A stretch of DNA of 64,000 nt from Narcine bancroftii. Lineage: Eukaryota. Within the stretch, counting starts at the first letter, position 1; the number at the start of each line of letters is the position of its first letter. Positions 17,348 through 39,164 of the stretch are shown here, piece after piece. The notes under the pieces are model-generated. The model saw only the letters and a list, made by a program, of their open reading frames with translations. It ran no database searches and was not told the DNA's origin. The position numbers and the translations under genes were made by a program. Location of the stretch: positions 83,886,001 through 83,950,000 of the forward strand of contig NC_091472.1 of assembly GCF_036971445.1 (NCBI RefSeq), written 5' to 3'.

Positions 17348-17406
17348 TCCCTTTTACACAGTGATCCCACTTAATTGGCATGTGTATGACCCATGTTTAA
17401 AGCCAG

Positions 17407-17609
17407 TGTAGTGAACTGGAATTCACTGTCTGTGTATTGTTCTGATGTCTGGCTCCTTCCTTGGCTCTATGCTCACCTACCCCAATATAAACCCTGATTT
17501 TCCCACCTTGATTCACTTGAGGACTATTGTATCTACCTGCCATTGATTGTAAGCTATTAAAAGCGTGTTTGTACTCCTCACTTGTCTGTCACACAACTGA
17601 TTGCACTCA
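17407..17609 (+). repeat. LTR family A, 5' LTR
   Basis: TGTAGTGAAC...GCACTCA with TATAAA at 17486 and ATTAAA at 17556. Homologous to the reverse complement of 23909-24105. Confidence 0.9.
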
Positions 17610-17635
17610 ATTTTAATAGCTTACTTTGAAATGGG

Positions 17636-19813
17636 ATGGAAGCCCTGTTGAAACCAGGCAGGATGCAGTAAGTGAGGGCACTGGGTGAAGATCTGCCAGA
17701 CTAAAGAAAACCCAAAGAGGGCAATCGTTTGTGCAACTACCAAATCATCACTCGACCCTTGCCTTAGTTCCATCTCTCTGTTCTGTTCGCCAGGAAGTGA
17801 TGCATTGCAGGAAGCCATGGCAGCCATCTTGCCACACCTCAAGGTCGATGCCACCTAGTCCTTCGTCAGATTAAGATGGAGGGTGGCCATCTCGCCACAC
17901 TTCATGGTCAACGCCATCTTGTCTGCCCGCGGGACAAGATAGGAGAATTGACATCAGCATGGGGAGCACTGGCATCGGTCATCCTGGATTAGGCAATACC
18001 TCACCAATTGAATAACTCGACAATGGAGGTTAGAGTAAACAATCATTTGACTGATTGCTAAGTAGACACTCACACCACACCGAGAGCTTTAGAAACTCTG
18101 CAACAGCTCTGTACACTTAAGTGTACCGGATGGACTATCATATTTTCTTAGCTTCACACTCACACTCTGCAATGATCCAGTTGTATTGTATGGTACATCT
18201 AACTGTAATAGGGGGAGGTGGAATTTTGTAAGTTCCAACTGTATTTACTGAAGGATTTGTGTGCACCTCTGTTGCTGGGCCTGGACTTCCTGCATCACTT
18301 TAAAAGTGTGACCCACTCCCTCCAATCACAGTGTGAAACGGAAGGTCCCAAAAGCCAGTCTCTCCATCCTAAATATGGATTCCTCCCCTCCCCCAGTTTC
18401 CAAACCTGACTCCCAATTACAAACCAATAGCTACAAAGAGCAGGCGATACAGTGTGGGGGATCCGGAATTTATCAGAGTCGAAACACAGCAGCTGCTCAA
18501 AGAAAACATCAATGAACCTGGCAACACCCCATGGAGAGCCCAGATGGTAGTTCTGAAAAGGGAAGAAAAATCCAGACTAGTGATTGACTATAGCCAAACA
18601 ATTAATTATTTCACACTCCTGGACGTGTACCCCCTTCCTCAAATTTCAGACATGGTAAACAAAATTGTGCAGTGTCGGGTCTATTCGACCATCAACTTGA
18701 AAGCTGCATACCATTAGTTACTGATCCATTCTAAGGACAACCCCTACATAACACTTGAGGCAGACAGATGGCTCTATCAGTTTGGGAGAGTCCCTTTTGG
18801 TATCATCAATGGGGTCTCAGACTTCTGGAGACAATACGGATTGAAGGTCACCTTCTCTTATCTTGACAAAGTCACCATTTGTCAACACTCTCTGGAAGAT
18901 CATGACGCCAACCTCCAGAGGTTTCTCCATACGGCTAAGGCCCTGAACCTCATGTACAATACCAGTAAGTGCATGTTCTGGACAAAACGTCTGGTGATCC
19001 TTGGCTATGTAGTGCAGAATGGCATCATTGGCCCTGACCCCAATCGAATGTGCCCCCAGTTAGAACTCCCGATCCCGAGGACTATGAAAGCCTTAAGGAG
19101 GTGCCTGGGCTACTTCTCCTACTACGCCCAATGAGTCTCTCACTATGCGGATAAAGTCTGCCCCTTCTTAAAGTCCACCTATTACCCATTGTTGGCCAAA
19201 GCCCAGGTGGCTTTTGACTATGTTCAGAGCTACGTCACAAAGGTCACCATGTATGTGGTGGACGAGAACGCACACTTCTAGGTGGAAAGCTATGCCTCTA
19301 ATGTGGCTCTAGCCGCTACCTTTAACCAGGTGGGCAGGCTGGTTGCCTTTTTCTACCACACCCTACAAGGCCATGAGCTTTGTAACCCATCTGTGGAGAA
19401 AGAGGCTCAAGCCATTGTCGAGGCCATCAGGCAATGGAAGCATTACCTGGCCAGCAGGAAATTTACACTGCTCACCAACCAGCGATCGGTGGTATTTATG
19501 TTTAGTAATGCAAAAGGGGGAAAAATAAAGAATGATAAGATTGCAAGGTGGTGGATCGAACTCTCCATTTATAATTACAACATAGCATACAGGCCAGGTA
19601 CTCTCAATGAACCTCCAGATGCCCTCTGCAAACACTAGCCTGTTGTGGTCACTGCATGTTGAGCTTTGCCACCCAGGCATCACCCGCATTGCTCGTTTCA
19701 TTAAGCATGCTACCTGCCCTACTTCATTGAGGACATTGGGAAATGATCAAGTCCTGTCAGGTCTGCGTGGAGTGCAAGCCACACTTCTACAGCCCGACAA
19801 AGAGCACCTGATC
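17636..19813 (+). pseudogene. Family-A gag (mostly deleted) and pol (PR, RT, RNase H, integrase zinc finger)
   Basis: MEALLKP start; GHWVKIC knuckle end; LCAPLLLGLDF; PWRAQ..RLVIDYSQTIN..LDVYPLP; SYLDKVTIC; EKEAQAIVEAIRQWKHYL; LCHPGITR..CVECKPHFY. Confidence 0.9.
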
Positions 19814-21843
19814 TGGCCCTATATGGCTTTTGAGGCTGATGGGGGGTTATAGCAGTTTAAAAGGGTACCTTTTGGAGTCAATAATGATGTGTCAGTGTTT
19901 CAGGGAGAGATGGATAAGATCGTTAGAACGTATGAGTTGCAGGACATGTTCTCTTAACTGGATAATGTCACTATCTGTAAAAAGACCCAGACTGAACATG
20001 ATAACAACTTTAAAAAATTTCTAGCAACAGCTAAAGAACTCAATCTTGCATTCAACGAGGGCAAATGTGTTTTCAACGAAACGGAACTACCCATTCTGGG
20101 CTACATTATTCACGAGGGCAAAATCTGCCCTGATCCAGAAAGAATGGCTCCCCTTAAGAAGTTGCCACCCCCAGAGTCAGCAAAAGCCCTTAAAAGGAGT
20201 ATGGGATTATTTTCCTATGACTGCAAATGGGTACGTGACTACGCTACAAAAGCATGCCCTTGGTTTGACACAAAATCTTTCCAACAGCCTTGAAAGCTTT
20301 CGAGAGAATTAAAGCTGATATTGCCAAGGCTGCACTCTCGTCCATTGATGAGAATGTCCCGTTCCAAGTGAAAACTGATGCCTCAGATTGCGCTTTAGCA
20401 GGAATCCTTAATCAAAAGGGCAGACACGTGGTATTCTTCTCCCACACGTTACGCAGACCTGAACTTAAACATCCAGCCAATGGAAAAGAAACCCAGGCCA
20501 TCATTGAAGCTGTTCGTTACTGGAGACGCTTTCTAGCTGGCAGGAAATTTACGTTGATCACTGATCAGACATCTGTAGCCTACATGTTTAGTACTAAATA
20601 CAAAAGTAAGATTAAAAACGATTAGGTGGCACACTGGCGAATAGAACTTTCAACTTACATTTATGAGATCCTGTACAGACCTGGCAAGTTAAATGATCCC
20701 TCTGACACATTGTCACGAGCTGCTGGCGGTGCTCAGCTTGAGGGACTAAAGGAGATCCATACCAGACTGTGCCACCCAGGGGTCACAAGATTCTTCCATT
20801 AAATAAGGGCTAACAGCCTCCCGTACTCCCTCGAAGAAGTCAGAAAACTGACTAAAGGCTGTCCTGTTTGCGCAGAATGCGCATTTGAAGGCTCCGGAGG
20901 CCACTCTCATCAACGCGACCCGACCTTTTGAGAGGATCAGCTTAGATTTTAAAGGCTGTTACCTTCTAACAACAAAAATGTAGTTTTCCATTCTGTAATC
21001 AATGATTTCCCTTCGTGATACCCTGCCCCGACGTCTCAATGGTGTCTGTTACTAAGGCACTTGACAGAATTTTCAATATTTTTGGTTTTCCCAGTTACAT
21101 TCAAACAGACAGAGGCTCAGCATTTATGAGTGCAGAGCTGTGCCAAACTCTGTTACGTAAGGGGATTGCCACCAGCTGTACCACGAGCTACAACCCCCAG
21201 GGCAGGGGCAGGTTGAAAGGGCTAATGCCACAGTCTGGAAAACTGTTAACCTCATGTTAAAGACACATAGTTACCCTGTTACTCGGTGGCAGGAGGTGCT
21301 GCCCAAGGCGTTACATTCTATTCGGTCTCTACTGTGTACTGCAACAAATCAAACACCTCATGAACGTGTTTACTTTTCCTAGGAAATCAGGGACTGTGAT
21401 GGACTGGCCCACCTGTCTATCTGAGCCTGGAACCGGATTATACTCAGACGTGTAAAACGGACCCTCTAGTCCAGCCAGTTCAGCACACTAACCCCAATTA
21501 TGCCCACATTAAATTCCCAGATGGTAGCACGGACACTGTACCCCTAAGAGATCTGGCCCCGCCTAGTTCATCCCTTCCGCACACCCCTACTCGGAGTGAT
21601 CCTGAGAGGGTGGATGCATCACCCCAGCCTGTGACCCCTAGTAAGCATTCAGATGGCCATGCTGAGGCCCTACTGCCTCATGCTGGTGATTCTGGAGCAG
21701 CTCCAGAAGTCCAGCCTTCTCACATTACAGACCAGGGAACTGTATCAACACCGTCAGTTCCCCAGGCTGCCATCCTTGCCCCTGTTCTGATAAGGAGGTC
21801 TACTCATATCCGTAAACAACTCGCGAGGCTTCAGTATTCATAA
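19814..21843 (+). pseudogene. Family-B pol (mid-RT through integrase)
   Basis: PYMAFEADGGL*QFKRVPFG; VKTDASDCALAGILNQ; KETQAIIEAVRYWRRFL; LCHPGVTR; IFGFPSYIQTDRGSAFMS..TTSYNPQG; ends IRRSTHIRKQLARLQYS*. Confidence 0.9.
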
Positions 21844-22008
21844 ATATTCTGATCGCCCTGCTAGTTACTAGCCTTGTTTTGGCTATCTCAGTGAATTCTC
21901 AATGCCATTTATTTTATTGTATTATGCTTGCAGTAGATTGCTGGCTTGCTTGAATTCTACTTTGCAGCTGTCCCTTTGATTTTAACCCTACTTCTGCTAG
22001 GGGGAGAC

Positions 22009-22227
22009 TGTGGTGAATCTATGCTGAGCTGTCAGTCTCGCACTATGCCTAACACTGCTTTACTGACATTAGATGTGTATTATCTCTACCACTTAAGACA
22101 CTCCCAGTGGGTTTAACTGTGTCTGCACCTATTGACTTTCATTATTGTACCATTAGTTTCTGCTAATAAAAGCCATGATTATTGCCTGACGACGCCGCCT
22201 TCGTCAACTTCATTAACTGGCACTTCA
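22009..22227 (+). repeat. LTR family B, 3' LTR (PPT AGGGGGAGA at 21999-22007)
   Basis: TGTGGTGAAT...GGCACTTCA with an AATAAA signal. Homologous to the reverse complement of 38810-39028. Confidence 0.9.
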
Positions 22228-22357
22228 GCCACATGGATGCAAGAACAATAGAGGATTGGGTGTGAGGTAGGGAAGGTTTAGTTTGTGTATGTTTGTAGGT
22301 CAGCAAACTATACTGGACTGAAGGGCCTATACTTTGCTGTAATTTTCTATGTATGTT
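22228..22357 (+). mobile_element. CR1 3' tail, continuation of 16875-17347
   Basis: gccacatggatgcaagaa..ggactgaagggcctatactttgctgtaattttctatgt resumes the CR1 sequence. Confidence 0.8.
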
Positions 22358-23908: not shown

Positions 23909-24105
23909 TGTAACACAACTGATTGCACTCAGAGTCTTGTGAGTAGTTCAAACACGGTTTTAATAGCTTACAATCGATGGCCGGTAGATACAATAGTCCT
24001 CAGATGAATCTGAGGTAAAGTCGGGAAAACCAGGATTTATATTGGGGTTAGGTGAGGGTGGAGCCATCTAAACAATAGACAGACAGTGAAGTCCAGTTCA
24101 CTGCA
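23909..24105 (-). mobile_element. Solo LTR, family A
   Basis: Reverse complement of 17407-17586; TG..CA ends; 5-bp TSD CATAT/CATAC. Appears to interrupt an old L2/SINE-type tail. Confidence 0.9.
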
Positions 24106-37869: not shown

Positions 37870-39164
37870 ATTGACTTTTAGGACCAGGGGTTACAATCCC
37901 TGATGTTTCAGAAATGGATAGATTGATCATCTCTCATAGAATTAGCATGGTCGGTTGCCTAATTACAATAATGGAGAATGACCACTATGGAATATTATCT
38001 GGTATCGGTCACATCTTCATTTGTATTCCCTGGTATCATTGGGTGTTTCAACCTTTAGAACACAAGCCACCCTCTGCCAAGGCAGGACCACCACAAGCTG
38101 AACAGACATGGATGTGTGTCCCATATCCATTTCTTCTAGTGATCATTTGGAGCCCAGATAGGATCCTTCCTTTTCAGCCAGATCCAGTCGCTACTCATTT
38201 CAGCTTAATCGTAAAGGGAGTTAATTACCTTTCTGAGGGCTTGCCCTGTGATTCCTACTTCCCTCAGAAGCTTGCATTTGACTACAAATCCTCCACAACC
38301 GATTTCAACTGGGTACATCCTCACTTTTCAGCCTCACTCTTCTGCTTCTATGGCAAGATTAGTATAACGTAGTGTCTTCTGTTCTTGCGCCTCCCGATGA
38401 TTGTCAACTCAATCATGAAGAAAAGCTGCTAAGAACTGGACCAGAGTATCAGATCTTATCTCAGATTGGTGCTGGTAATTTCAAATGGAAAGATGGCCGT
38501 GTTCAGTGGGCCTGTAGCTCGGAGTGAGGAGGAGTGGGTCCTGTGATTCATTCTCTCCTGGATGAAAGGTATTAGGCATGGGAAGGTGCCTGGCTCTGGG
38601 TGTTTGAGGGCAGGGCATTCAAAGTTATTCTCTTTTCTTCGAGTTTGATTGTTAGACATCTCAGCACTTGATTGTGTCACCAGGTCTATCAGTCTTGGGT
38701 GCGACTGACATTGCACCCAACCAAAATGTGCTTGAGGGTAGCAGGAACTGTGCAGAGGGGACATGCTGGATCCTCTCCCGACCACAGATTTAGGTTTGTG
38801 GGAGAGGGCTGAAGTGCCAGTTGACGAAGTAGACAAAGACGATGTAGTCAAAGAATAATCATGGCTTTTATTAGCAGAAACTCATGGTACAATAATGAAA
38901 GACAATAGGTGCAGACACAGTTATACCCAAGGGGAGTGTCCTTAACAGTCGAGATAATGCAGAGCCAATGTTAGAACAGTAAGGCTCTGCCAGAGGGGAG
39001 ACAGACAGCTTGACAGACATTCATCACAAGTGCAAGACATTATATGTAATTACATTACATTATAAGCTTTCCACAAGTTTTTCCCAGGTTAGTTTCCTCC
39101 TTTCACTGCTCTCCTATCTTGTCCATTGCCCTTGTTTTGGTTGAGATATGCCTTTGGCAAACCT
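37870..39164 (-). mobile_element. HERO-clade non-LTR retrotransposon (restriction-like endonuclease), 3' part
   Basis: Minus strand: AKGISQPKQGQWTR..RRKLTW; TYNVLPSPTNLNLWSGEDPACPLC..LKHILVGC..TW*HNQVLRCL; TNLR*DLILWSSS..IELT; YPVEIGCGGFV; SSDWIWLKRKD. Confidence 0.85.
38810..39028 (-). mobile_element. Solo LTR, family B, inserted in the HERO ORF
   Basis: Reverse complement of 22009-22227; TSD AGGGC/AGTGC. Removing it restores TYNVLPSPTNL. Confidence 0.92.

Follow-up and report, generated by a model that had tools for sequence, protein, structure and literature searches.

A candidate self-priming site complementary to the LTR in a clade of animal Ty3/Gypsy retrotransposons, and inverted-LTR insertions in the Narcine bancroftii genome

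How could a Gypsy element begin reverse transcription when the place expected to hold a tRNA-binding site holds a complement of its own LTR? The question is raised by an element in the window analysed here, a 64,000-nt stretch of Narcine bancroftii DNA (GCF_036971445.1, contig NC_091472.1, positions 83,886,001 to 83,950,000, forward strand). No TGG is present where the tRNA site is expected after its 5′ LTR. Instead, a single base separates the LTR end from 14 nt (the site), after which comes the gag ATG; the site is the exact reverse complement of an LTR segment (the arm) in which the hexamer ATTAAA occupies 17556-17561. These features, from which the original prediction proposed self-priming with a partner arm internal to the RNA, were all confirmed (Table 1). 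The inverted 14-mer repeat is weak on its own (BLAST E 0.38 within the window); its position and its family-wide conservation are not due to chance.

Table 1. Features of the window element and of related solo LTRs (positions in the window)
Feature	Position	Strand	Remark
5′ LTR, family A	17407-17609	+	Starts with TG; alignable to 29 further copies in the genome and to the solo LTR 23909-24105
TATA box (TATAAA)	17486-17491	+	In undeleted copies of the family, 72 nt 5′ of the 11-nt arm
Predicted transcription start	17509-17510	+	From copy alignment; family copies have their initiator at -43, and an aberrant family A insertion ends at -40
LTR arm, predicted 3′ end of primer	17549-17562	+	11-nt core 17552-17562
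Private 23-bp inversion of LTR end	17587-17609	.	In 0/29 other aligned copies; direct repeat of 23909-23931
One-base spacer between LTR end and site	17610	+	One base also in the other lineages compared
Candidate primer-binding site, complement of arm, no TGG	17611-17624	+	14/14 pairing with arm
gag start	17636-17668	+	ATG at 17636; broken after 11 codons
Broken RT and RNase H, family A	18373-19635	+	
Broken RT, RNase H and integrase, family B	19958-21843	+	No chromodomain
Polypurine tract	21999-22007	+	
3′ LTR, family B	22009-22227	+	Arm of family B LTR at 22157-22171
Solo family A LTR, normal end	23909-24105	-	Target duplication 4/5
Solo family B LTR	38810-39028	-	Target duplication 4/5

The element in the window is decayed and chimeric: the 5′ LTR, gag and RT/RNase H belong to family A, and the RT, RNase H, integrase and 3′ LTR that follow belong to family B. 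The sequences flanking it, 17402-17406 and 22228-22232, match at 4/5 positions; the chimera may have been inserted as a single unit bearing two different LTRs, the alternative being a chance match of the flanks (about 1.6%). Elements of the same clade were also found nested or adjacent elsewhere, with a family B LTR within a family A leader (L048), A beside C (L106, the same place as L027) and D beside A (L101).

The arrangement might have arisen from a fold-back duplication at this one locus. The sequence ..GCACTCA, originally read as the end of the 5′ LTR, turned out to belong to the private inversion listed in Table 1, and the presence of this inversion right beside the site is what speaks for a one-off event. 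The original prediction had named uniqueness of 17587-17624 to this locus as one case that would count against self-priming, and this holds only for the inversion, while the site itself is found throughout the family and the clade, as described below. A one-off duplication as the origin of the site is thus ruled out, and we give it practically no credit.

Within the Narcine genome, family A copies selected by gag alone form at least 12 of 13 pairs in 24/29 cases and at least 11 in 26/29, compared with 2/300 and 25/300, respectively, for random control boxes. The family A duplex is usually 13 bp long, the 14-bp duplex being a minority form. Family B had been predicted to carry the complement of its own arm. 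Among 31 family B LTRs examined, the internal junction is clear in six, each of which carries this complement; one further junction, the seventh, is decayed and the others are 3′ or solo LTRs. The same arrangement, in different letters, is present in families A2 and C. At least 9 of 11 pairs are formed in 28/30 copies of the D group, for which the script misplaced some registers, and all 11 in 29/30 copies of the young family E. As a control we used another Gypsy family of this genome (L223-L237), young and tRNA-primed, with long open frames and LTRs 93-99% identical, which we take to be Mag-like; of its 14 copies in which an LTR pair was detected, 13 have TGG. In family E, site positions 14-17 are variable in 9/30 near-identical young copies (L253-L282), and this variation at the far end of the site could reflect primer copying or else slippage in a run of bases.

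DNA of relatives was drawn from 77 metagenome and MAG loci. From the junction set we left out L127, whose junction is divided between contig ends, the decayed L133, L123(-) and L170(-), where the gag matches were spurious, and L188 and L190, which have no upstream DNA; L086 was omitted as a duplicate, and C and L119 as near duplicates. In the 27 rows with a scorable junction, at least 10 of 11 pairs are formed in 27/27 and TGG occurs in 0/27, which excludes the tRNA site in other full-length copies that would have spoken against self-priming. The TGG within the gag ATG was considered as a tRNA site and rejected, since it stands 14-82 nt away from the end of the LTR and is dictated by the protein code. 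The geometry is constant across lineages, with the LTR end, one base and then the duplex, and pairing spans 11-19 nt in the clade.

The covariation between arm and site called for by the original prediction was found. At the variable positions 4-11, 197 of 200 pairs are formed in 25 lineages, compared with 117.5 ± 6.6 for permuted partners, and at positions 12-14, 60 of 75 compared with 36 ± 3.4; in both cases the real count was reached by 0/10,000 permutations. At positions 15-17 the count falls to 29/75 against 23 permuted (366/10,000 reach it), and no covariation was detected beyond position 17 by the permutation test on the 25 lineages. Permutation is a fair test here because the register was picked as the best within a search box; the rows are partly related, so that 25 lineages are not 25 independent events. 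In predicted folds, bases +12 to +15 have a mean pairing probability of 0.72, compared with 0.40 when loops are shuffled, and it is higher in 20/25. A second helix begins at +12 in most of these folds, and the 12 nt 3′ of the site are unpaired in nearly all nested folds.

The elements concerned are Ty3/Gypsy LTR retrotransposons of a compact, non-chromoviral, animal clade. They are about 4.2-4.8 kb long with one ORF and show TG..CA LTR ends, a polypurine tract and 5-bp target duplications. The Pfam order PR-RT-RH-IN was recovered in 4/4 intact relatives, with Ty3 Pol as the best solved match. A chromodomain (PF00385) was detected in 0/120 of the homologues listed and in 0/4 intact relatives scanned at E 0.1. 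A chromodomain search of this genome gave 16 matches. In a quick tree, drawn without L098 and L191, the 36 rows were joined with an SH-aLRT of 100 against five outgroup rows from two other Gypsy types of this genome. Intact relatives of ~1200 aa are common, and the clade proteins are labelled from nematodes (Trichuris, Trichinella), soft coral (Xenia), sharks and rays. A protein listed by NCBI under Narcine bancroftii is encoded in this genome, with a 100% match over 116 aa. No relatives were found in viral contigs, and a gag-only protein search returned none. Animal-type Gypsy elements also occur within bacterial MAG contigs of GTDB (L184-L192), likely as host contamination.

Cigr-1 is similar in size to the elements of this clade. 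The clade may be the Cigr-1 clade or one of the MolGy clades; these are non-chromoviral animal Gypsy clades with a wide host range (PMC6238403). The accessible text of that paper makes no mention of a PBS or of self-priming, and motif searches in five of its supplementary files gave no match.

A conserved duplex at this place could be purely regulatory, masking the poly(A) signal of the 5′ LTR or the start codon, with some host RNA acting as primer. The canonical hexamer lies inside the arm in 16/25 lineages, and most of the other nine carry one-base variants, as such a role would suggest; two arms have nothing similar. However, the duplex is kept where the arm contains no hexamer (L139 and L178) and where a separate hexamer lies downstream of the arm (L117 and L118). 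Its start always lies one base beyond the end of the LTR, a TGG site is absent, and a host primer would need to change in every lineage. We thus regard a purely regulatory duplex as very unlikely. The arrangement is thus real and found across the clade, and over all variants of the mechanism it very likely serves self-priming.

To our knowledge, self-priming has been shown only for the fission-yeast element Tf1, and the first nucleotides of the RNA are assumed to be required. In available accounts, the Tf1 primer consists of the first 11 bases of its own RNA, cut between bases 11 and 12 (PMC7175516), and the same mode is predicted for Tj1 (PMC4600332, PMC5341516). Members of the Tf1/sushi group are described as chromoviruses that take their primer from the 5′ end of the RNA and form a structure of three duplexes (bioRxiv 10.1101/2022.12.06.519325). 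Like the present clade, Tf1, Tf2, Tj1 and the Tf1/sushi group have no tRNA site and pair a post-LTR site with roughly 11 nt of the LTR (PMC7175516, PMC4600332, bioRxiv 10.1101/2022.12.06.519325, PMC11042837), and in Tf1/sushi, as in the clade, a helix adjoins the predicted cut. In contrast, the clade has no chromodomain and its arm often holds a poly(A) hexamer; a helix begins at +12 in most folds, but a duplex 3′ of the site, as in the three-duplex ‘pretzel’, is not seen in nested folds. Self-primers have also been predicted from site-LTR complementarity in the plant lineages Tcn1 (Gypsy, chromoviral) and TAR (Copia) (PMC6317226, PMC2864245), for which the available text of PMC6317226 gives neither primer length nor footprints. 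The arrangement studied here is not described in the accessible parts of PMC3601003, PMC6238403, PMC12440569 and PMC13524379. In a literature search that covered subscription papers thinly, neither self-priming in a non-chromoviral clade of animal Gypsy elements nor inverted-LTR insertions of the kind described below turned up. Repbase entries reportedly name some sea-urchin and fish Gypsy families as self-primed; should these include the present clade, the claim at clade level would not be new. The novelty of the data likely lies in two points read from the sequences, the inverted-LTR insertions of a young family in the same genome and the apparently internal arm of the fish families.

The position of the arm in the RNA depends on where transcription starts. 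In Narcine-genome rows a TATA box is followed 27-31 nt later by an initiator in 6/6, the initiator lying at -20 to -44 from the arm. For family A, a TATA box and initiator spaced by 26-33 nt arise in 1.1% of shuffles, and shuffles of three unrelated LTRs give such a pair in 0.5-2.4%. The initiator motif of family A is removed from the window copy by a 6-nt deletion. The TATA box is kept in 20/30 copies of the D group. Family E has an initiator-like motif with its A at -41, and 33 nt before it, in place of a TATA box, the variant CTTAAA alone. Among the 21 non-Narcine rows, 19 have no TATA within 110 nt and two have one, including L139, whose TATA box at -24 to -28 is suitably spaced for a start at the arm. 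The first arm base stands in a Y-N-A-G-Y context in 14/19 lineages and itself looks like an initiator. By eye, a possible antisense splice-donor-like motif can be made out upstream of the arm in several unrelated LTRs, namely in the family A U3 and in L123, L130, L145 and L182.

A second source of information is a set of aberrant insertions in which the primer site is extended as an inverted LTR, a product to be expected now and then if a long primer is copied by the plus strand. A genome-wide pattern search detected 266 of them for family E, compared with 0 for the reversed-pattern control. We mapped 90 and viewed 9 further loci; these footprints come from one genome and mostly from one family. 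An assembly artefact was rejected in view of the distinct flanks, the target duplications and the diverged old copies in family A. Class I (23/90), typically 433 bp, is composed of a full LTR, the spacer and an inverted U3-R-arm, with a perfect 5-bp target duplication in 17/23. In class II (49/90) the inverted copy reaches the U3 end or nearly so and the forward LTR is partial, beginning at +1 to +21 in 34 insertions (median +11), beside the predicted cut, and in none at the predicted start. Not all of these insertions are independent; such starts agree with a template cut after the arm but do not prove it. Class III (18 copies, 16 events) has an inverted copy that ends early. Where the far end was visible, perfect target duplications were present in 5/5 class II and 3/3 class III insertions, with two more left unscored.

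The 16 independent class III stops are distributed as seven at -39 to -47, seven at -11 to -34 and two in the next 125 nt. The cluster at -39 to -47, whose window was set after the first 30 loci had been seen, has a P of 1.0e-5, or 1.6e-3 over all windows, and the scarcity of stops in the 125 nt beyond it a P of 2e-7. It coincides with the initiator motif of family E. A targeted genome-wide pattern for this window gave 10 matches, of which nine were true stops and three were new events, whereas a control window 12 nt further gave four matches and no stops. Untemplated bases are present at several class III stops. Among five inverted-LTR insertions of family A, three reach the U3 end, one stops at -40 and one at -13.

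Since both the TATA-initiator pairs and these run-off ends place the start upstream, the arm appears to be internal to the RNA in the fish families, as originally proposed, and the RNA would begin about 41-44 nt upstream of it. The classic Tf1 geometry, in which transcription begins at the arm and the primer is the first 11-14 nt of the RNA, would explain the initiator-like context noted above, the TATA box of L139 and the A at the first position of the 11-nt core in 16/19 lineages, preceded by a T-rich run. In Narcine-genome families, however, the TATA-initiator pairs lie 20-44 nt further upstream, the run-off ends cluster at -39 to -47 and pairing reaches 2-3 nt 5′ of this A. An arm at the RNA 5′ end was therefore dropped for these families and the Tf1 geometry as a general account seems improbable, though it may apply in invertebrate lineages. 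The fish arm, 20-44 nt inside the predicted RNA, thus differs from the Tf1 primer, formed by the first 11 nt. In its mode of action the element resembles Tf1, yet we do not place it in the Tf1/sushi group, since two defining features appear to be missing, the primer at the RNA 5′ end (on indirect evidence, in the fish families) and the chromodomain.

For the fish families we consider it probable that the site is a self-priming site and that the primer is a leader fragment of ~55 nt (~30 nt in family B), produced by a predicted internal cut just 3′ of the arm. The RNA, starting at the position suggested by motifs and run-off ends, would pair its arm with the site, the observed pairing and covariation being accompanied by a predicted fold that usually stacks the duplex on a second helix starting at the next base. 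A cut 3′ of the arm, probably made by the RNase H of RT as in Tf1, would free the primer. RT would then extend it through the spacer base and U5 and jump to the repeat at the 3′ end, landing between the cut and the poly(A) site. Plus-strand synthesis would copy the primer, so that the site would be renewed from the arm; in Tf1 the plus strand is likewise reported to copy the primer, and the cDNA to keep this copy and gain untemplated bases (PMC11042837). The aberrant insertions may result from over-copying and fold-back of the plus strand, fold-back being the presumed source of class I. A primer made by splicing was rejected, as pairing continues unbroken through the AG.

Where the arm holds the hexamer, the duplex is predicted to hide this signal in the 5′ LTR only. 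Such masking is plausible because the site adjoins the 5′ LTR alone; with the hexamer inside the arm in only 16/25 lineages, it would be at most a frequent side benefit.

Normal second-strand transfer should be hindered by a long primer, and the model leaves the usual end of copying near 14 nt unexplained. A short primer cut from the leader at both ends would ease strand transfer and fit covariation ending at about 14 nt, and the conserved AG could mark the second cut. Run-off ends could arise from a plus strand on a second, uncut RNA, and stops at -41 to -47 would therefore be compatible with a primer cut twice. On the other hand, there is no direct sign of a 5′ cut, and the seven stops spread over -11 to -34 are as expected for jumps off a continuous RNA primer. 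We consider the short primer unlikely and retain the ~55-nt leader fragment. On a stronger form of this reading we are evenly divided: the clade would represent a second, independent tRNA-free priming in an animal-wide Gypsy clade, by a capped leader of ~55 nt cut right after the poly(A) hexamer, with one duplex both priming and silencing the 5′ poly(A) signal; as by-products, integrase would insert inverted-LTR mini-elements with two U3 ends, which would keep in the genome a trace of both start site and primer junction.

An internal cut and a long primer would, if true, widen self-priming to an apparently unrelated clade. They would also bear on the question, posed in PMC3601003, of whether hairpin priming preceded tRNA priming. 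Lacking a tRNA site, such elements may escape silencing by tRNA fragments. The aberrant insertions offer a sequence-only readout of start sites and priming junctions, and with a young family present in the Narcine genome, the model is open to testing through sequencing of RNA and cDNA.

Two further features were seen among the inverted-LTR insertions. In L350, L355, L378, L380 and L381 a hairpinned U5 loop stands ahead of the inverted LTR, a recurrent product type. Four others (L319, L339, L370 and L417) share a single aberrant junction, in which the inverted R is joined to internal position about 674; an aberrant product has therefore apparently been re-amplified as a non-autonomous lineage.
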